A DNA stretch of 64,000 bases, from NCBI RefSeq assembly GCF_030384885.1, contig NZ_CP128615.1; one strand, given 5' to 3'. The notes below the pieces were generated by a model. It was not told the origin of the DNA. It did no database searches and saw nothing but the letters and a program-made list of their open reading frames with translations. Of this stretch, positions 45,182 through 62,184 are shown one piece after another. This DNA is from Escherichia coli (GTDB lineage: Bacteria > Pseudomonadota > Gammaproteobacteria > Enterobacterales > Enterobacteriaceae). Made by a program: the position numbers and the translations under genes. Position 1 is the stretch's first letter, and every line of letters starts with the position of its first letter.

Positions 45182-45673
45182 GTCTGTGTTGTAAAATGGC
45201 GCCGAAAGCCCGGCGTAGCCGGTTGCCGGGCTATAAATTCTGCCACCCTACCCCCTGCCCTGATTAGCCTTAACTCGCGAACAGCAATGAAGAAGTCAAA
45301 GTAATCCCTTTTAACCCCGGTGAGCGGGCTTTACGGCGTTTACGACGTAAAGGGCGTGATTTCCGGGGCCTAAGCGGCGGCAGCTTGCTGCTGACGCTTA
45401 GGGGGATGTTCATCAACTATTTCAGCGACACCAGGGAACTTAACACGGTAGCTGCAAAGCCCTAATCCCGCTCACCGCCACGCAGCTGCCGTACGTCCCC
45501 CACGGGGGTGCGCAGTGCTGCGCGCGGGAACGGCGGCCCGTCTGCGGGACGCGGCGCCGTACTGCGCGTTAGCGGCCGCACGCGGCCGGTTACGGGGGAC
45601 ACTCCGCCATACGACCAGCGACCCGCTGAGCTGCACAATCCACAGATAACACAAGCTACATACATGTCGATAT

Positions 45674-46245
45674 GGGAATCGGCCCACCTTGCCGGGCGCC
45701 GGTGCCGTGTGGAAATCCGCCCACCTTGCCGCGCGCCGGTGCCGTGTGGGAATCCGCCCACCTTGCCGCGCGCCGGTGCCGTGTGGGAATCCGCCCACCT
45801 TGCCGGGCGCCGGTGCTGTGTGGAAATCCGCCCACCTTACCGGGCGCCGGTGCTGTGTGGAAATCCGCCCATCTTGCCGGGCGCCGGTGCCGTGTGGGAA
45901 TCCGCCCACCTTACCGGGCGCCGGTGCCGTGTGGGAATCCGCCCACCTTACCGGGCGCCGGTGCCGTGTGGGAATCCGCCCACCTTACCGGGCGCCGGTG
46001 CTGTGTGGAAATCCGCCCACCTTGCCGCGCGCCGGTGCCGTGTGGGAATCCGCCCACCTTGCCGCGCGCCGGTGCCGTGTGGGAATCCGCCCACCTTGCC
46101 GGGCGCCGGTGCTGTGTGGAAATCCGCCCACCTTACCGGGCGCCGGTGCTGTGTGGAAATCCGCCCATCTTGCCGGGCGCCGGTGCCGTGTGGGAATCCG
46201 CCCACCTTACCGGGCGCCGGTGCTGTGTGGAAATCCGCCCATCTT
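45674..46245. repeat. Tandem array of about 15.5 copies of a 37-bp repeat (GAATCCGCCCACCTTGCCGCGCGCCGGTGCCGTGTGG with point variants)
   Basis: Contiguous head-to-tail repeats without spacers; downstream of a truncated repA paralog, i.e. in the position of an incC/incA-type iteron array. Confidence 0.85.
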
Positions 46246-46292
46246 CATGACAAAAATTTGTCAAATGACAGGCTCATGTGTGCTGATTTATG

Positions 46293-46595
46293 TCAGACGG
46301 GATTTTGCTTATCAATTATTGAGAACAGAAATTTTCCTGAATCATCAATACTATACTTAGCAAGTAAAGGTGTTTTCTCATTTATCTGCTTGAGTGCAGG
46401 ATCAAGGAAAGATCGTTTCAACTCTGCCAAGTTCTTCTGCTGGGATTCCGGTAAGACGAAACGGTCATTTAACCAAGCATGAGTAGTAACCCATAAGCCT
46501 GAAGATTTGAATTGAGCAAGACTTTCATAAAGGCGGATCGTCCGGGGATTTCGAAGACTGCCACAATCGCGGAGCGAGTAGGTGGTGAACTGGTT
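46293..46595 (-). pseudogene. C-terminal fragment of a second Rep_3-family RepA, truncated by IS1
   Basis: Minus-strand translation ...YSLRDCGSLRNPRTIRLYESLAQFKSSGLWVTTHAWLNDRFVLPESQQ... aligns with the C-terminus of the intact RepA at 54177-55043. Confidence 0.6.
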
Positions 46596-46610
46596 GGTAA
46601 TGACTCCAAC

Positions 46611-47379: not shown

Positions 47380-49300
47380 TTATCGTCACGCTGTTAAATA
47401 TGTCGCGGTAGGGATACCCGTTACCGGATACCCCCCGCACAGATCCCGGCGTGCGCGATTTACGCACCGGGCTCCTGCCTCGGGTGTCTGGCGGTGAACC
47501 GCTCCACAGGCCATGGATGAAGAACCCGAACCCTTGGTAGCCATGCGGCTGCCAGTTTGTTTGCTTTCGTCCAGGTCGTATCATCCTTCTGGCTCCTGCG
47601 CCTGAGCGCCCGGCGCCAGAGGTTTGTTACGTGTGTCCTGAACTTCTGCATGGTGGGGAAGTTGCCCGGTACCGAGTGATAGTTCAGGTATCCCTGAACC
47701 ACTCTCCTGAGCCATTTTCCCTGTTCGGGGATTGAGTAATGCCAGCGCCTTCGCAGACCGTCTTTGATGGCTTTCAGAGTTGCCGTCATCCGATCCCGGC
47801 GGGTCTTTCGTATCAGCATGAACCTGCCGTTGCGATCTTTCCCGCTGATGTGCGTGAACCCGAGGAAGTTGAACGTTTCTGGTTTGCCTTTTCCCCTGAT
47901 GGCACGGTTTTCGGCAGCGAAGCGGCCGAACTCCATCAGACGGGTTTTCTCCGGGTGAACCGTGAGTCCGAACTCCCTCAGTCTGCGCTGCATGGCTATA
48001 CGGAAGCGCCGGGCATCGTATCGTTTGTCGAACCCGATGACGATGTCATCGGCGTATCTGACCATTACCACATTGCCTGTGGCATAGCGACGTCGCCACT
48101 GATGCGCCCACAGATCGAAGACGTAGTGGAGGTATATGTTTGCCAGCAGCGGTGAGATGACCGCACCCTGTGGGGTGCCTTCCTCCGTTGCTCGCCATTG
48201 ACCCTCCTCCAACGTCCCGGCTGTGAGCCACTTACGTATGAGCCTGATTACGCTCCGGTCGCCGATCCGATGCTCTGTGAACCTGATCAGCCATTCGTGG
48301 CTCACCCTGTCGAAGAACTGACTGATGTCGGCATCCAGTACCCAGTTTACGTTAGTGCGTACCAGCCCTGTGGCCAGTGCGTCCAGTGCATCGTGCTGGC
48401 TTCGCCCGGGTCTGAACCCGTATGAGAACCCCATAAAGTCGTTTTCATAGACTGCGTTCAGGATTTTCACCAGCGCATACTGGACGATCTTGTCCTCCAG
48501 CGAGGCGATGCCGAGCGGGCGTTGTTTTCCATCCGCTTTTGGGATGTAGTGACGCCTGCCGGGCTGCGCCCTGTAGCTGCCCTAATGTAGCCTCCGGTGC
48601 AGATCTGTTATGTTGTTCTTCATGTTTCCGGCGTAGTCCATCCACCTGATGCCATCCACTCCGGCGGCCGCTTTCCTGCTCAGGGAGAGGAATGCGGCTT
48701 CCAGTGCTTCGACTGTCAGCAGGTGGAACAATGCTGTAAACCGTTCTTTCTTCCGCTGCTTCGCAGCTTCCCGCACGCGTGACAGCCTCTGTGACATGCT
48801 TTCCCGGCTCTGTGTCCGGCGCATGTGTGGCTGTTCCGCGTTCCCCTTGGCCCCGCTCCTTCGCTCCACTGACTCCGCTCCTTTCGGGTTGTTCGCCTGC
48901 TTCGCCGCTACTATGAGCGAGTCCGACTTCTCCTCTCCGTACATCACCGGCTATGACTCCTCGTCTTCCCGGTGCGGGCCGTCTCCGACACTGGCAGATG
49001 GTCAGAGGGGAGATCTCCCGGTTCCCGCGTAGAGATCGTATTGACATGCCAGGGTCTCAGACCCCGCCGGGTCCATGTGGCACTCGCAGTATCGCACCCT
49101 ATGATGTTGCCTTCCGTTAACAGTACAACGTCGGCACCCGGTAATTTAATATACATTTCGTGGCTCAATGGCTGGCCTGTCAACACCCCTGTCAACGCTT
49201 CGCCCCATACCTCGCGGTATGCAACGCATGACTCGGGGACCTTGTGGATTGCTGGTCCTTCAATGGTCGGGGACTTTCACCCCTTGATCTCTACCGGTCT
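47380..49300 (-). mobile_element. Group II intron (bacterial, ORF in domain IV), boundaries approximate
   Basis: Encodes an intron-type reverse transcriptase/maturase; domain-V-like hairpin GAGCCCGGTGCGTAAATCGCGCACGCCGGG near 47458-47490 just 3' of the ORF; a GTGCG 5'-consensus-like motif is seen but is too close to the ORF to be the certain 5' end. Confidence 0.55.
47460..48947 (-). pseudogene. Group II intron reverse transcriptase/maturase, split by a frameshift near 48470-48600
   Basis: N-terminal ORF 48582-48947 (domain 0: ...AAAGVDGIRWMDYAGN...) and C-terminal ORF 47460-48470 (RT motifs incl. VRYADD and maturase X-domain VQGYLNYH) are in different frames. Confidence 0.7.
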
Positions 49301-51059: not shown

Positions 51060-51140
51060 TTGGCGATTTCACCTTGAAATTCTCAGCCTAAACTGCCTAA
51101 TTACAATAAGTTAGATGTGAAATCGCCATGGCGAAATTAT
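51060..51140. promoter_or_regulatory. P1-type partition site parS
   Basis: Heptamer ATTTCAC/GTGAAAT and hexamer TCGCCA/TGGCGA boxes flanking an AT-rich (IHF-like) core, immediately downstream of parB. Confidence 0.6.
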
Positions 51141-52114
51141 TGACTCAAATTTCTGTCAAGGACCTCGTTGATAGCCTTGTCCAGTTCATCCTGAATCACT
51201 TTTGACATACGGCTAAACTCATAAGTCAGCGTACGCCCTTTCACACGCTTACGCGCGAACTTGTCCTTTTCTTCAAAAGACCAGAGTGGGGAAACCACTG
51301 ACTTTTCCTTGGGAGATGGATCTATCAATGCCTGAGATGCCTGAGAAATCAGCTTCAGTATACTGGCTTTCTGTTCGTCTTCTGGTCGCTCGCCTTCACT
51401 CAAAATTGCATCGAGCTGAGCTGATACAGACTGAATGAGTTCTTCAGGCGTTAATCCCTTTTCACTGAGTTTTTCATTAACTTCTAAAAGAAGTTTATAG
51501 TCACTAAACGATAGCTCCGACTGAACCGGGAACAGAGAAATCAAGTCTTGCGGTACGGCCGCCGCCTGCAGCGCCCTGGTAACTTTAGCTTGAGATAACC
51601 CCTCCAGTTCAGCAATTTCCTTTTGATTAAATCCGGACTCTTTAAGAGCGATCAATCTCAGGCCAATCTCCCGAAGATTATGTTCTTTAGCTGTCTGGAT
51701 ATCTTTAGCCAGTTGGCGAGCTTCATCAGCTGATAAATGCTCTTCGGTAACCATTACATCAAGGCCTGTACGGACAAAAATTGCTGAGGCTCGCCGTCTT
51801 GAACCATCCAGTATCTCAATCCTTTCACTTTGCTTAATACCAATACAGGGAAAGAACTGCTGAAACTTAATCGTCTGGATAATGGATTTCAGGGATTCCC
51901 TGGTCAGTGCAAGTTGATCTCTTCCGTTGTTTTCCTGGTTTACGAAGGTCTTACTTTCAACTTCAGATGCAGGCACCCGAACAAACCTGAACGTTACCTT
52001 CCTGCCGGTTTTTAAGGTAAATACCTGGCTTCTACCGGTGTCCGTCATTTCCGCAATTGACGCCTGGGTATTTAACTGTCTGCCGATGGTTTTTCTTTTC
52101 TCATTCGACATCAC
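51137..52114 (-). CDS. parB: P1-type partition protein ParB
   Basis: 325 aa; ...EILDGSRRRAS...GLSQAKVTRALQAA...RFARKRVKGR... strongly resembles P1 ParB. Confidence 0.9.
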   Translation of the reverse strand: MMSNEKRKTIGRQLNTQASIAEMTDTGRSQVFTLKTGRKVTFRFVRVPASEVESKTFVNQENNGRDQLALTRESLKSIIQTIKFQQFFPCIGIKQSERIEILDGSRRRASAIFVRTGLDVMVTEEHLSADEARQLAKDIQTAKEHNLREIGLRLIALKESGFNQKEIAELEGLSQAKVTRALQAAAVPQDLISLFPVQSELSFSDYKLLLEVNEKLSEKGLTPEELIQSVSAQLDAILSEGERPEDEQKASILKLISQASQALIDPSPKEKSVVSPLWSFEEKDKFARKRVKGRTLTYEFSRMSKVIQDELDKAINEVLDRNLSQ

Positions 52115-53316
52115 ATACCTCCGTTAGTACGAATGAACTCGATGCGATCAAAGACTGCCTTCGCAAAGTCTTCCGCTGCTGATTTTGCGCTTTTTAGTGC
52201 CTCTGTACTTCCATCATAGGTTGCTGGATTTGCTGAAATAACTGTGTCAAAAGTCTCCCCACAACGTTCGAAACCATCCAGTCTTGGCAGAACCATGTCT
52301 AGCATATCGGCACCGAAAACCTCTTTGGCCTGACTATGGCAAATTTTGTGATCAGACTTGTTCAGGATCTTGGACATGAAGCCGACATTACCGATGAGAT
52401 TGCAGGTGTGCCCATCCATTTCGATGGAATCTATGAGGGCAGGGAGGCTGGCCACAAACTTCAGGGAAGAATGAAAATCAACCGTCGCCGGTGGAAGAGG
52501 GGTCAACATCAGGTCTGCCGCCCCAATGCAGTTTTTCAGGAACGCATCAAGGTGAGGACCACTATCAAGGAAAATAAAGTCGTAGTCATGCTGGAGCTTG
52601 TCGATAATGTTCTCTTTAAGCACCGCATGAATATTTTTCCCTGGCAGATGTTCTTCACACAATCCCTTCCAGCCTTCAGCAAGGAATGCATCGTCAATGG
52701 AAGCGGGGATTACATCAACACCAGGGATAATAGACGGTACTATAAAATCGGAAAGTAATTCTTCACGAGACACGTTCTGGAGCATGGCCTGAGCAGCCGT
52801 ATTTTCAACCAAGCCCACTGAATTCTCATGGCTCAGGAACATTGTCAGAGATGCCTGCGGATCGAAATCGATGGCCAGAATACGCAGGTCTTCGAACAGA
52901 AGCTGAGGATGAGCTCGAAAAGCATGTGATAATGAAGCGGTAGAAACTGTCTTGGAACCACCACCTTTAAGATTACATACAAAAATCGTAAAGGCTTTAT
53001 CGAAGCGATCCCTGTACTTCGGTACTTTACGATGGTTATACAGATCGATGACATTCTGAATCGTCATCGCGTATTTCATCGTATTACCAGAAGGTTTCTT
53101 TTTAAAAATGTAGCCACCGGCTTCCATTTCGGACACAGCATACTCAACACTGCCTTTACTGAGCTTAGGCAGCTTATACAGAGCGGCTTTGCTGTATTCC
53201 TGATAGAACTCGGTAAGCTTCAATTCCTCTTTTTGCTGTCGGATACTTTCGCTCAAAGATGTCAGAAGCTTACCTGCACGTGTAGCGACTTTCCGTAACT
53301 GCTCAATATTGTCCAT
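52111..53316 (-). CDS. parA: P1-type partition ATPase ParA (type Ia)
   Basis: 401 aa; Walker A-containing NLKGGGSKTVSTASLSHA and N-terminal DNA-binding extension as in P1 ParA. Confidence 0.9.
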   Translation of the reverse strand: MDNIEQLRKVATRAGKLLTSLSESIRQQKEELKLTEFYQEYSKAALYKLPKLSKGSVEYAVSEMEAGGYIFKKKPSGNTMKYAMTIQNVIDLYNHRKVPKYRDRFDKAFTIFVCNLKGGGSKTVSTASLSHAFRAHPQLLFEDLRILAIDFDPQASLTMFLSHENSVGLVENTAAQAMLQNVSREELLSDFIVPSIIPGVDVIPASIDDAFLAEGWKGLCEEHLPGKNIHAVLKENIIDKLQHDYDFIFLDSGPHLDAFLKNCIGAADLMLTPLPPATVDFHSSLKFVASLPALIDSIEMDGHTCNLIGNVGFMSKILNKSDHKICHSQAKEVFGADMLDMVLPRLDGFERCGETFDTVISANPATYDGSTEALKSAKSAAEDFAKAVFDRIEFIRTNGGM

Positions 53317-53707
53317 TTATCACCTCATGACGTTTTTTGTCATTTTGAACAAAAAGTGTCATGTTGCAAGAAAAAAATCATATTGTTTTGATTTCGCTCT
53401 CAACAGAAGGGGGATGAAGCTCGACGGGCGTGCTACTAAATCACACTGCAGCAACACGCAGACGCACTTTTGACCATCAACAGCAACTCATACAAAAGGG
53501 CTTTGAGAAAGGTATTCAACTTGCAAGACAGGAGAGTCATTCAGAAGGATTCTGATTTTAGTTACGACCAGTGCAATGCTGAGCCTTATGTATCAGCGCT
53601 CGCCGCAGCCATGTAACCGAGCGTAGCGAGCGAACTGGCGAGGAAGCGAAGAGGAACCGTTCCGGCAGATAGCTCTTACGCTCAGCACAAGAAGAGTTTT
53701 CCATCCT

Positions 53708-54125
53708 CTGTGGGAAACAGGTCAACTTTAATGGACGCTCCGGACTATGGGAAACAGGTCAACTTCGCGGACGGCCCGGACTATGGGAAACAGGTCAACT
53801 TCACGGGCGGCCGGGAGTGTGGGGAACAGGTCAACTTCGCGGACGGCCCGGATTATGGGAAACAGGTCAACTTCGCGGGCGGCCGGGACTGTGGGAAACA
53901 GGTCAACTTTGCAGACGGCCCGGACTGTGGGAAACAGGTCAACTTCGCGGGCGGCCGGGAGTGTGGGGAACAGGTCAACTTCGCGGACGGCCCGGACTAA
54001 GGGAAACAGGTCAGCTTCTCGGACGGCCCGGACTATGGGAAACAGGTCAACTTCTCGGACGGTCGGGAGTGTGGGAAACAGGTCAAGTTAGGCAAGCACT
54101 ATGGGAAACACAGCAAGTTCAGTAT
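53708..54125. repeat. Array of about 11 direct 36-bp repeats (TGGGAAACAGGTCAACTT core); iteron/copy-control locus downstream of repA
   Basis: Regular 36-bp period read directly; located between repA stop and parA start. Confidence 0.85.
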
Positions 54126-54176
54126 CCCCCCATATGTCAGCAACAAACTAAGGGGGGAGGAAATAAAAATTACAGA

Positions 54177-55043
54177 CTATTGTTTTTTATCAAGAAAATT
54201 AAACAGCAAGCGACCATCTTCTTCAGTGGTATATGTTACCTTTAATGGCGTCTTCTCATTAATTTTCTTCAGAGCAGGTTCCAGGAAGGTACGCTTCATT
54301 TCAGCAATATTGTTTTTCTGCGAGGCAGGGAGCATAAACCTTTCACATAACCAGTCATGTGTGGTGATCCAGACACCAGTGCTCCGGAACTGACACAGGC
54401 TTTCATAAAGCCGGATGACACGAACACTATTAAGCTGGCCACAGTCATAGAGAGAATAGGTAGTGAACTGGGAGGTTAAGCCGACCAGGAATGGCATGAC
54501 CTTGTAGTTAAATTCAATCTGCCAGGAACCCCGGCCTCGCTTCATTCCTGCTTCAGCCAGCCACGGACGTTTAACTTCTTCAAACTCACCTTCTTTTGGA
54601 TAAAAGGTAACCGTTGATTCGCCCAGAGCATTTACCCCAGCCTTCACATCACGACTGGCGACAGACGTAGCGACATTGAAGTATTTGACGTAATCGGAAA
54701 CGCTGATTTTGAAGAGCGGCAATACGTCAGAGTCATCTTCCTGGCTGTCATTAAAATAGGCCTGCATGAGGCATAACCACAGCACACGTTTTGCCTGAAG
54801 AGGCAGGTAATATGCAGCTTCGGTCAATTCGTTAGATTGCTTTATACTGGCGCGTTTTTTAAACGTTTTAGTAGCTGGCAAGAGTGCTTGAGTATCCATT
54901 TCAATGCCTATGGGTAAATTTTTACCCACCCATAATGACAGTGAAAACAGAAATTGCAAGCTATCGCGATACTTATCCACCGGAAAAATCTGCACTTTAT
55001 CCACAAGTGGATAATTGAGAACTGAACTTGACCTCTTTCCCAT
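54177..55043 (-). CDS. repA: Rep_3-family replication initiator RepA (RepE of F-like)
   Basis: 288 aa; ...IKQSNELTEAAYYLPLQAKRVLWLCL...VIRLYESLCQFR... parallels F RepE. Confidence 0.85.
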   Translation of the reverse strand: MGKRSSSVLNYPLVDKVQIFPVDKYRDSLQFLFSLSLWVGKNLPIGIEMDTQALLPATKTFKKRASIKQSNELTEAAYYLPLQAKRVLWLCLMQAYFNDSQEDDSDVLPLFKISVSDYVKYFNVATSVASRDVKAGVNALGESTVTFYPKEGEFEEVKRPWLAEAGMKRGRGSWQIEFNYKVMPFLVGLTSQFTTYSLYDCGQLNSVRVIRLYESLCQFRSTGVWITTHDWLCERFMLPASQKNNIAEMKRTFLEPALKKINEKTPLKVTYTTEEDGRLLFNFLDKKQ

Positions 55044-55260
55044 AGCTTGTTGATGCGTATCCCATAGCTTGTTGACACAAAACCCACTGATACGTGATTA
55101 ATTTCCCATATTATGTTTACCAGTTGCCCATACAGGCCCCCTCTCAGGCCGCACTGTACGCGGCTTTCAGGCTCCCTAAAAGATGTAAAATAAAGAAAAA
55201 GAATAAAAAAGTACTTTATAAAAATATGCCCGTGGATAAGTGGATAACCCCGAGGGGAGG
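55030..55260. promoter_or_regulatory. Probable replication origin: short repeats over the repA start, AT-rich stretch, two tandem DnaA boxes (55231-55249)
   Basis: CCCATAGCTTGTTGA x2, A/T-rich 55170-55230, GTGGATAAGTGGATAAC. Confidence 0.5.
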
Positions 55261-55772
55261 TGATTTTTCAGGCATTGAGCGTAAGCAGAATTTATAAGTT
55301 TTGTTCCCTGGTGCTTCCTCGCTCACTCGGGGCTTCGCCCTGTCGCTCGACTGCGGCGAGCACTGCTGGCTCGATCATATCCGTGGCCGGAAGATACTAC
55401 TCCTCCCCCGAGTCGCTCTCCAGAGCCGGCTACAGCGAGACAACCCGCACGAAGATTTCTATCGTCCCTGCAGACATATTCGAATCGTTTTTATTAACCC
55501 TGGCTTCCGTCGTGACAGAACACTACGTCCTGTAAAAGGGGGACTAAGGCCCCTGAATCACACACCTGAATAATGCGGAGTTTTACGATAATGTCATTGC
55601 TGGAAACTTTCCTGACCGCTTCTCAGGGGGCAACAATCCTGTTCCTTGCCATGCTGATCTACTGGCAAAAGCGATAAATCCAAGCGGGCTGGCCTTTGGC
55701 CAGCTTCGCTGTATAAGGGGAAAAATGCGGCATATCCAGACATTTCACTAGGCAATTTGAATTCAGATATCT

Positions 55773-56120: not shown

Positions 56121-56899
56121 TTAAATATTCCCTTTCAGCATGGCTACCGCATCCGCTTCGGGCATCTGAAACTGAACTCGATGCCGCGCAGCAACATCAA
56201 GTGCGAACACCTTCGTATAGACTTCCGTCGAGCTAATCGATTTGTGGCCCATCAGGCTCTGCAAAACCTTCAGTGGTATGCCGGCATACAGCACATATGC
56301 ATCGCGTAGGAGTGGCGGAACGTATGCGGGGTGACCGGCACCGAGAATGTCACCCCGTCGACGGCGGCCGCTTCAACCGCTTCGCCAATCCAGGTCCGTA
56401 CTGTCCGGTCGGTGATGTCCCAGATGCGGGCTTTCTCTGTTCTGCCGGTACGCTTGTTGCGTCTTTCCAGCGGAATTTTCAGGGTGGCCACCATCATCTG
56501 CAGCTGGCTGACGTAGTGGTGATCGGAAAGCGGAACCAGACGATGAGCCTGGCTACCGGCGGGAGCTCGGCCGGCTGTCCTGGCCGCTTTTTCGGTGCGC
56601 TGCTTAAGCGTGGCCAGCTGCACGAACGGATACGGTGGCACCAGCGAAAAATCCCCCCGGGTCAGCGCCAGCGCCTCGTTGATACGTGCGCCGGTGTTCC
56701 AGAGGGTTGCCAGCAGCATCTTGCGGTGCAAATCGGGCACATAATGGAGCAGGGCGCTGACTTCCGGTGCCAGCAGGTATTTCGGTAGTTCATCTTGAAC
56801 GAGCGCCATCTGGCGCAGGGCCAGCGCGGCGGGATAGTCAATGGCCACCGGCATTTGCGCCGGCTGCTGCGGGTGAGAATATGATAAGAGGCCGCTCAT
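56121..56899 (-). pseudogene. Tyrosine site-specific recombinase (ResD/XerD-like resolvase), frameshifted
   Basis: N-terminal 209 codons (track 56270-56899) end at ...TFRHSYAMHM; the conserved C-terminus ...LYAGIPLKVLQSLMGHKSISSTEVYTKV... continues in another frame (2-bp shift near 56285). Confidence 0.7.
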
Positions 56900-61806: not shown

Positions 61807-62184
61807 GATGTAAAAACGACCAATCATTTAACATCTGTTATCGGCACCGCCCCGGACGGGTTCGGCGCAAATATGGTATGGTACCAGCCCGGCAATTCAC
61901 CTGCCGTGCAATCTGACGAAGCAGTACCGGCGTATGCAGATATATCGTCCAGACATATCTGCCGCATTCAGGCGGTGAGTAAAGCCTTCTCTCTCAAAAG
62001 AGGAGCAACAGTTATCCACAGATTCTGGGGATAACTGCGAAAAGAATATGTGCCAGGAAAGTCGGCTCCCGGGAAAAAGACCGCTGGCGGCGCAGCTGCT
62101 GGATACGAAAGCTGAGCTGAAAGGATCCCGGGAGGACGTCCGTAAACTTCAGTCCCTGGCCCGTCATGACGGGAAGGTGAAAAA

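Follow-up and report, generated by a model that had tools for sequence, protein, structure and literature searches.

Within the window, that is, the whole 64,000-nucleotide stretch of Escherichia coli DNA analysed here, a Rep_3-type initiator gene is flanked by repeats on both sides and adjoins a partition unit. The features considered are the following (positions are those of the window):

51061–51136, minus strand: parS of P1 type, with box B TCGCCA, box A ATTTCAC, and ATTTCAAGGTGAAATCGCCA
51137–52114, minus strand: parB, 325 aa; Pfam ParB PF08775 (E 1.3e-50), 54% full-length identity to P1 ParB
52111–53316, minus strand: parA, 401 aa, of type Ia, its N-terminus carrying a helix-turn-helix; Pfam HTH_54 and AAA_31, 69% identical to P1 ParA
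53338–53375, no strand: direct repeats of 19 bp, A+T-rich, immediately before parA; candidate promoter/operator of the par genes
53597–53648, plus strand: left putative ColE1 ssiA-like (primosome-assembly-site-like) sequence
53708–54089, plus strand: array of 11 iterons at 36-bp spacing, in which G+C-rich spacers separate the 22-bp cores CTATGGGAAACAGGTCAACTTC; candidate locus of copy control and incompatibility
54099–54120, plus strand: diverged 12th iteron, 30 bp past the 11th, scoring 21.2 bits with the position-weight matrix; member of an inverted-repeat pair
54177–54899, minus strand: repA (named repB in papers on IncR), 240 aa if read from the probable start ATG at 54899; Pfam Rep3_N and Rep3_C
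54911–54928, no strand: inverted repeat TGGGTAAA-NN-TTTACCCA built from half-sites of the iteron, a candidate operator at which RepA dimers would bind
54932–54959, minus strand: candidate repA promoter TTGCAA-16 nt-CATTAT, weak (8/12 matches, by manual reading)
54973–55014, no strand: three DnaA boxes (TTATCCACC, TTATCCACA, TTATCCACT), with the putative origin iterons on one side and the candidate repA promoter on the other
55024–55133, minus strand: five putative origin iterons at exact 22-bp spacing, in the orientation opposite to the array
55176–55231, no strand: A+T-rich segment (80% A+T), candidate DNA unwinding element
55231–55247, minus strand: two overlapping tandem DnaA boxes (TTATCCACG, TTATCCACT) at 55231–55239 and 55239–55247, each matching at 8/9 positions
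55313–55361, minus strand: right putative ColE1 ssiA-like sequence, in the orientation opposite to that of the left one, with which it forms an inverted-repeat pair

Alignment of the 53.3–55.4 kb region showed 100% identity over 2,101 bp to NZ_CP024857.1, a plasmid whose MOB-suite type in PLSDB is IncR, and at least 80% of the region is present in 1,429 plasmid records. Replicon typing by alignment, which had been proposed as a check, thus returned identity to plasmids typed IncR. Relative to the known IncR backbone (pK245-type repB, 36-bp iterons, parAB, umuCD, resD, vagCD) the window shows no sequence difference, and the neighbours umuDC, parAB, resD and vapBC/vagCD are the same. Phased direct iterons beside an A+T-rich region and DnaA boxes, a feature of Rep_3 theta replicons, are likewise found (five repeats of 22 bp, 80% A+T, five boxes). 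The locus is therefore read, with a probability of about 0.8, as the basic replicon of an IncR plasmid, iteron-controlled and of theta type, joined to a P1-type parABS partition unit. The original prediction had not named the replicon as the known IncR one.

The initiator gene and the 36-bp repeats are already published, the latter as the IncR iterons (PMC9412624, PMC7707992), and only some fine detail is new here; the "36 bp, 10.4 copies" given in PMC9412624 are exactly the Tandem Repeats Finder figures obtained for the window. The published IncR accounts that were consulted mention neither the origin iterons of 22 bp nor the DnaA boxes (five of each), nor the candidate operator at 54911–54928, the ssiA-like sequences at the flanks or a shorter form of RepA. 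The literature search returned no experiment on the IncR origin, a 2025 IncR review offering generic statements only, and this origin appears never to have been mapped experimentally.

The reading frame 54177–55043 (minus strand) is uninterrupted and encodes both Rep3 domains (Rep3_N, E 1.8e-31; Rep3_C, E 2.4e-13, both above the Pfam cut-offs), in agreement with the intact repA originally described. Its product is homologous to the RepE, pi and pPS10 RepA structures, and the iteron-bound RepE structure 1REP is matched at E 9e-34, residues 13–232 of RepA (240-aa numbering) aligning with residues 12–235 of RepE; its fold can thus be taken as settled by homology to solved RepE structures. Full-length homology to F RepE (32% identity, E 1e-40) also upholds the assignment to the Rep_3 initiators and not to a non-initiator family. 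With 141.8 bits against the NCBIfam RepE equivalog NF010305, whose cut-off is 342, RepA is nonetheless not a RepE orthologue.

RefSeq, for its part, starts RepA at 55043 (288 aa), which would place iteron 1 and three DnaA boxes inside the coding sequence. The frame is certainly open from 55043, and WP_004118283.1 is annotated with this start in many RefSeq records, but the Pfam domain begins only at residue 67, homologues begin at the equivalent of M49 (288-aa numbering), and it is residue 13 of the 240-aa form that pairs with RepE residue 12. M49 lies 21 residues ahead of the conserved QSNELTEAAY, and the RepA proteins of IncN and of the sister replicon L005 start 12 to 14 residues ahead of it. 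Moreover, in a variant 96% identical to the window (CP052353) codon 7 of the extension changes from TCA to a TAA stop. Since the ATG at 55043 is the CAT within the iteron motif CCCATAG, the open frame from this point is explained by the repeat itself. Translation of the longer form is consequently considered very improbable; RepA probably starts at the ATG at 54899, the RefSeq model being, probably, 48 codons too long. Within the array, RefSeq also annotates a "hypothetical protein" (WP_000339857.1, 53731–54000, plus strand), and all three plus-strand frames are open across the repeats. This openness, however, follows from a unit that is 36 bp long and holds no stop codons; the homologous IncN array, with its 37-bp period, does not preserve a reading frame, the copy number of the array varies freely, and the conserved part of the unit is the RepA iteron, which is also found inverted upstream of repA. 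That the array encodes a repeat protein has a negligible chance of being correct, and the annotated protein is probably an artefact.

Upstream of repA, the short repeats, A+T-rich stretch and tandem DnaA boxes that had been predicted are all present. The short repeats are five 22-bp units carrying the same iteron as the array in inverted orientation: CCCA occurs exactly five times in 54950–55200 (55039, 55061, 55083, 55105 and 55127), in perfect 22-bp phase, and the units are the reverse complement of the array core, copy 1 being 91% complementary. Iterons 3 and 4 are degenerate, with position-weight matrix scores below 3 bits, which counts against the explanation favoured here. The tandem DnaA boxes are kept in L005 and in the IncFIA(HI1) locus L003, and a single box occupies their place in IncN. 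Three further boxes, at 54973, 54997 (perfect) and 55006, were missing from the original prediction and fall inside the RefSeq N-terminal extension; altogether, five boxes are found in 275 bp vs about 11 expected over the whole 64 kb. No match to the IHF consensus was found in the origin, and the Rfam search gave only a chance snoRNA match (E 0.48); an antisense-RNA control element of a known family is therefore unlikely. Between these boxes and repA, a promoter scan with a threshold of 9/12 reported no repA promoter, the candidate listed above scoring lower. IncN and L005 have inverted repeats comparable to that at 54911–54928 in the corresponding position, and in F the inverted repeats that separate promoter and ORF are bound by RepE dimers (PMC13028717).

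Downstream of repA, the approximately 11 regular 36-bp repeats of the original prediction correspond to 11 copies in register followed by the offset 12th. Tandem Repeats Finder delimits them at 53711–54086 (period 36, 10.4 copies, 86% matches), and the core TGGGAAACAGGTCAAC is repeated 11 times on the plus strand from 53711 to 54072, the first step being of 37 bp and the others of 36 bp. When up to three mismatches are allowed, TGGGAAACAGGTCAAC has 14 matches in the window vs 0.46 expected from shuffles. Each unit comprises a 22-bp iteron (48% G+C) and a 14-bp spacer (~90% G+C). The unit had been called unusually long; this holds for the 36-bp period, but the iteron itself is of ordinary size and merely widely spaced, as in P1 incA (30–41 bp) and IncN (37 bp). 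Among the replicons compared, the long array is seen only in IncR and IncN, with two copies in L010, 11 here, ~18 in L011 and 9.7 to 54.5 in IncN, while copy numbers of 10.5 to 22.5 are published for IncR (PMC7707992). L010 is a multi-replicon plasmid, so its two copies do not prove that the array is dispensable.

The adjacent parABS, proposed to complete the maintenance unit, is well supported by the identity of ParA and ParB to their P1 counterparts and by a parS collinear with the annotated P1 one, the right arm of which is identical (21 nt). The parts of a P1-type (type Ia) system are all present, namely a HTH_54 ParA, a PF08775 ParB and, downstream of parB, a parS in which a central spacer accompanies box A and box B; no match to the IHF consensus was found in the window's parS. 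The 53338–53375 repeats, detected by Tandem Repeats Finder and by a repeat search, match in position the ParA operator of the P1 record.

The closest characterised relative, although of a different family, is IncN1 (pCU1/R46, with repA and 37-bp iterons), whose RepA is 57% identical. As in IncR, five 22-bp iterons lie upstream of its gene, after a DnaA box and an A+T-rich stretch, and an inverted long-period array lies downstream; the iteron cores are alike at 13 of 21 positions, including TGGGAA, and differ at eight. On the contrary, IncN1 has a single upstream DnaA box and none between iterons and rep, belongs to a different incompatibility type, and has no adjacent P1-type parAB. With this level of identity, a 36-bp period instead of 37, a different core and an IncR typing, the replicon of the window falls outside IncN1.

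Resemblance to the ori/rep/inc layout of F RepFIA and P1 had also been proposed, and the order of elements indeed matches both. In F, oriS combines an A+T-rich region with two DnaA boxes and four iterons, and is followed by repE and by incC, whose deletion raises copy number (PMC13028717). Nucleotide identity over the A+T-rich stretch, the DnaA boxes and the DNA beyond them, a segment that lies upstream of repE in IncFIA plasmids, amounts to 72% for an F-like plasmid and reaches 95% for IncFIA(HI1), and resD lies on the same side. F differs in its iteron core (TGTGACAA..., four at the origin, vs TGGGAAACAGGTCAAC in the window; F-type iterons were seen in L003) and in its sopABC partition system, which is not of P1-type par. 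In the curated P1 record, parS, parB, parA, incA, repA, incC and oriR with its DnaA site follow one another in the same order and orientation as here, and five origin iterons at ~21–22 bp and tandem DnaA boxes past the A+T-rich region are common to both systems. The control (incA) iterons of P1 are, as in IncR, more widely spaced than its origin iterons, at about three helical turns vs ~3.4 in IncR. The P1 origin contains Dam sites. A homology between RepA and P1 RepA was considered and rejected (BLASTP E 9.5; tblastn against phages matched D6 and others, P1 being absent).

Both ends of the replicon are marked by sequences collinear with ColE1 1310–1361, a segment about 120–170 nt beyond the GGAAAAACGCC switch region that we take to be ssiA from its position and PMC3167613. 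The left one also occurs in the F-like loci L002 and L003, with 87% identity in an F-like plasmid, and in L005 and L006; the right flank is 95% identical in the IncFIA(HI1) locus L003. Folded as single-stranded DNA, these segments gave z-scores from -1.6 to +0.8, ColE1 itself likewise showing no significant z-score, and a literature search on a primosome assembly site in mini-F yielded nothing usable.

Regarding which part of the replicon is the origin, DnaA box(es), an A+T-rich stretch and five or six 22-bp-phased TGGGAA iterons are found upstream of rep in IncR, in IncN and in the sister replicons L005 and L006, whose RepA proteins are, respectively, 57%, 72% and 70% identical to that of IncR. 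L005 and L006 have no downstream array, resD coming directly after rep. Because the upstream module is kept in IncN and both sister replicons, and the array is restricted to IncR and IncN, where it has anything from 2 to more than 50 copies, the role of origin most likely falls to the upstream module and that of copy-control locus to the 36-bp array. Alternatively, the array might be the origin or an essential cis part of it, the five upstream 22-bp repeats serving only as RepA operator sites for repA autoregulation. Such a view would concur with the IncR literature, which calls the 36-bp array simply "the iterons" of repB ("repB and its iterons"), with the oriV mapped downstream (3') of repA in the more distant IncN2/N3/SGI1 replicons, and with a second A+T-rich patch (54140–54229) adjoining the array. 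Nonetheless, DnaA boxes are absent within or beside the array, its spacers are 90% G+C, the two sister replicons keep the upstream module without it, its copies range so widely, and the upstream module is nucleotide-homologous to the DnaA-box/A+T-rich part of F-type oriS. An origin in the array is therefore held to be improbable. Reportedly, by the title of a 2003 paper by Zoueva et al., IncN pCU1 has three origins, oriB, oriS and oriV; initiation may therefore also occur near the array, a point against the favoured reading.

With the upstream module as origin, a mechanism can be proposed from homology and anatomy. RepA monomers, with two winged-helix domains as in RepE, would fill the five in-phase iterons at 55024–55133, DnaA would occupy the boxes on either side of them (55231–55247 and 54973–55014), and the A+T-rich segment at 55176–55231 would melt for loading of the host helicase. 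RepA dimers would bind the inverted half-iteron repeat at 54911–54928, just downstream of the candidate promoter, and repress repA. The 12 downstream iterons (53708–54120; 36-bp spacing, inverted, ~90% G+C spacers) would not fire as an origin; they would titrate RepA and handcuff the origin iterons, a role like that of F incC and P1 incA, resulting in low copy number and IncR incompatibility. ParA, together with ParB bound at parS (51061–51136), would segregate the copies.

A broader and tentative proposal, rather doubtful as a whole, combines two ideas. On the one hand, the long-period IncR/IncN arrays may be purpose-built anti-initiation iterons: a 22-bp site recurring at ~3.4–3.5 helical turns with ~90% G+C spacers would leave neighbouring RepA molecules on different helix faces and DNA unable to melt, and, if so, the array would be limited to titrating RepA and pairing with the origin. 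On the other hand, the initiator-plus-iteron core may be an exchangeable cassette set between initiator-independent host-factor modules (DnaA boxes, the A+T-rich element and two inward-facing ssiA-like sites), modules that are ~95% identical in IncFIA(HI1) plasmids, which still hold two orphan IncR iterons.

In Klebsiella and E. coli, IncR plasmids are major carriers of resistance genes, those for carbapenemases included, and telling the likely origin from the likely copy-control repeats would allow a more rational design of mini-replicons and of curing tools based on incompatibility. The stability of co-resident plasmids might also be affected by orphan iteron arrays, an example of which is the IncN remnant in the window. 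The general understanding of iteron plasmids is left unchanged by these results.

Finally, a 72-bp two-unit superperiod in the array was considered and set aside, its signal being weak (lag-2 identity of 0.89 vs 0.87 at lag 1) and absent from the IncN array, which shows an 8-unit duplication; it probably reflects duplication history and not structure.

Alignment leaves virtually no doubt that the region is an IncR replicon, since 53.3-55.4 kb is 100% identical to NZ_CP024857.1, whose replicon type is IncR (PLSDB), and to hundreds of further plasmids; at least 80% of the query is present in 1,429 plasmid records. The flanking genes are the standard IncR backbone (umuDC, parAB, repB, resD, vapBC/vagCD), repB being the name used in the IncR literature for the initiator gene here called repA. 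The following features were located:

53597-53648 (+): left ssiA-like sequence, collinear with ColE1 1310-1361
53711-54086: 36-bp iteron array (Tandem Repeats Finder: period 36, 10.4 copies, 86% matches)
54099-54120: diverged 12th iteron
54177-55043 (-): repA, an ORF carrying both Rep_3 domains
54911-54928: inverted repeat of the iteron half-site TGGG(T/A)AA, TGGGTAAA-NN-TTTACCCA
just upstream of that inverted repeat: weak candidate promoter, TTGCAA-16-CATTAT
54973-55014: three additional DnaA boxes (one a perfect match), separating the iterons from repA
55024-55045: first upstream iteron
55176-55231: A+T-rich stretch (80% A+T)
55231-55247: two tandem DnaA boxes, each matching at 8 of 9 positions
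55313-55361 (-): right ssiA-like sequence, collinear with ColE1 1310-1361

Thus, the intact Rep_3 gene, the regular 36-bp repeats on its 3' side, and the short repeats, A+T-rich stretch and tandem DnaA boxes on its 5' side were all found as the original prediction had them. For IncR repB, 36-bp iterons in 10.4 copies are published (PMC9412624), and their number varies from 10.5 to 22.5 among IncR plasmids (PMC7707992). With these iterons and the IncR backbone already in the literature, the prediction correctly describes a replicon that was already known, and novelty is limited to annotation-level detail.

Each 36-bp unit comprises a 22-bp core (CTATGGGAAACAGGTCAACTTC, 48% G+C) and a spacer of ~90% G+C. 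The core TGGGAAACAGGTCAAC occurs in 11 copies on the + strand at a period of 36, and at up to 3 mismatches it yields 14 matches window-wide versus 0.46 expected. The short repeats upstream of repA are this same core in opposite orientation and at 22-bp spacing, the first being 91% complementary to it. CCCA occurs exactly five times within 54950-55200 (55039, 55061, 55083, 55105 and 55127); scored with a position-weight matrix from the array, upstream copies 1, 2 and 5 reach 30, 6 and 16 bits, while copies 3 and 4 are degenerate and retain the phased TGGG motif. DnaA boxes number five in 275 bp, against ~11 expected over the entire 64 kb. The candidate promoter was not reported by an automatic promoter scan.

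Relatives were then compared regarding both repeat sets. The IncN locus L007 (RepA 57% identical) carries upstream a DnaA box, an A+T-rich stretch and five phased 22-bp iterons, and downstream an inverted 37-bp array of 54.5 copies. A Raoultella plasmid (L005, RepA 72% identical) shows DnaA boxes, an A+T-rich stretch and six iterons upstream, and a ColV plasmid (L006, 70%) an A+T-rich stretch, six iterons and diverged box-like sequences, with no DnaA box at up to 1 mismatch in its upstream module; in both, the downstream array is absent and rep is followed by resD. F RepE (L002, 32% identical to RepA) has an F-type oriS upstream. Array size is 2 copies in one IncR locus (L010), 11 in the window and ~18 in another (L011), and among IncN arrays 9.7 in L008 and 15.5 in an orphan remnant within the window. 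The upstream module, being always present, is the better origin candidate, and the array, optional and freely variable in copy number, the better control-locus candidate; on this comparative sequence evidence, we consider it probable (roughly 0.75-0.8) that they act as origin and control locus, respectively. The main alternative, that the array itself is, or contains, an origin, appears unlikely given its absence from L005 and L006, and is retained because pCU1 (IncN) reportedly has several origins. In the model with most support, RepA monomers and DnaA would open the upstream module as origin, RepA dimers at the inverted repeat would repress repA, the array would titrate RepA and handcuff the origin, and copies would be segregated by ParABS.

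The predicted likeness to F RepFIA and P1 also holds, element order agreeing with the published description of F and with the curated P1 record. In F, repE is preceded by an oriS made up of two DnaA boxes, an A+T-rich region and four iterons, an inverted repeat before repE is bound by RepE dimers, and deletion of incC, downstream of repE, raises copy number (PMC13028717). DNA upstream of repE in an F-like plasmid is 72% identical to the IncR segment extending from the A+T-rich stretch past the DnaA boxes, and IncFIA(HI1) plasmids reach ~95% over that segment. P1 reads parS, parB, parA, Ppar operator, incA, repA, incC, A+T-rich Dam-site region and DnaA site, an order and orientation shared with the window; its incA (nine iterons, 30-41 bp apart; five, 21-22 bp apart, in incC) is a precedent for widely spaced control iterons. 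ParA and ParB are 69% and 54% identical to their P1 counterparts, and parS is collinear with P1 parS, with an identical ATTTCAAGGTGAAATCGCCA arm; protein comparison found no similarity between RepA of the window and P1 RepA. In IncR, a P1-type partition unit is thus joined to a RepE/IncN-type initiator, which takes the place of P1's own.

RefSeq RepA (WP_004118283.1, 288 aa) starts at 55043, within iteron 1, and its extra stretch (54900-55043, -) spans that iteron, three DnaA boxes and the candidate promoter and operator. The ATG at 54899 (240 aa) is favoured, the RefSeq model probably over-extending the N-terminus by 48 codons, because the Pfam match begins at residue 67 of the 288-aa form, in IncN and L005 RepA 12 to 14 residues precede the QSNELTEAAY motif (M49 lies 21 before it), RepE (1REP) residues 12-235 align with 13-232 of the 240-aa form (E 9e-34), and the extension's seventh codon is a stop in CP052353, a 96% identical IncR variant. 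RefSeq also places a hypothetical protein, WP_000339857.1, at 53731-54000 (+), wholly within the array. That all three + frames are open in this stretch follows solely from a repeat unit of 36 bp that lacks stop codons. The annotation is probably an artefact; in IncN, the homologous array is built on a 37-bp period.

The ssiA-like sequences form an inverted pair bracketing the replicon, both facing inward to the origin (ColE1 sense), and homologues adjoin the origins of F-like plasmids, L005 and L006. ColE1 1310-1361, taken here to be the ssiA / n' primosome assembly site, lies ~120-170 nt past the RNA/DNA switch; such a site is described at that position (PMC3167613). Folding of the ssiA-like segments gave no signal. 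Loading of a second helicase at initiation, or PriA-dependent restart of forks meeting RepA-iteron complexes, are possible roles. In the IncFIA(HI1) locus L003 (NZ_CP132221), one flank is 94.5% identical to 53594-53792, two IncR-type iterons included, and the other 95% identical to 55204-55381, and between them lie F-type iterons, operator, repE and incC. Judging from these alignments, the initiator and its iterons have evidently been exchanged as a core, with the ssiA-like and DnaA-box modules on either side conserved. L003 1451-3177 corresponds to 53594-55381, its two orphan 36-bp iterons adjoining incC.

The two IncR-replicon relatives L006 (NZ_CP045207.1) and L005 (NZ_AP021988.1) are uncharacterised, each with one extra lone iteron beyond the A+T-rich stretch on its far side. 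Besides IncFIB/FIC, MOB-suite gives the L006 plasmid cluster types only (rep_cluster_2244, rep_cluster_2313), and its rep-origin segment is inverted versus IncR relative to parAB and resD; the L005 plasmid is typed IncFII.

Elsewhere in the window, the orphan IncN1 remnant (45673-46606, 96% identical to IncN plasmid pKPC-79f0) holds its 37-bp iterons at 45673-46245 together with roughly the final 250 bp of IncN repA, truncated by an IS1 element at ~46607; without intact IncN RepA, this array could titrate RepA of an incoming IncN plasmid. Relative to the intact 258-aa gene in NZ_CP024857, a frameshift following ...HSYAMHM divides the resD site-specific integrase gene (56121-56899, -) into two ORFs, 56270-56899 and 56121-56294; either resD is a pseudogene or the assembly is in error there. 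Over the backbone as a whole, identity is 99.5%, with five gaps across 11.6 kb. Just upstream of umuD, ORFs at 47460-49050 (-) resemble, from their translations alone, a group II intron reverse transcriptase/maturase and look like the IncR backbone element retA. Near the window end (~62010-62035, also 62905 and 63625), GTTATCCACAGATTCTGGGGATAAC resembles the terminal part of a ColE1/pMB1-type origin and, with several more DnaA-box matches in its vicinity, may mark a fragment of another small replicon.
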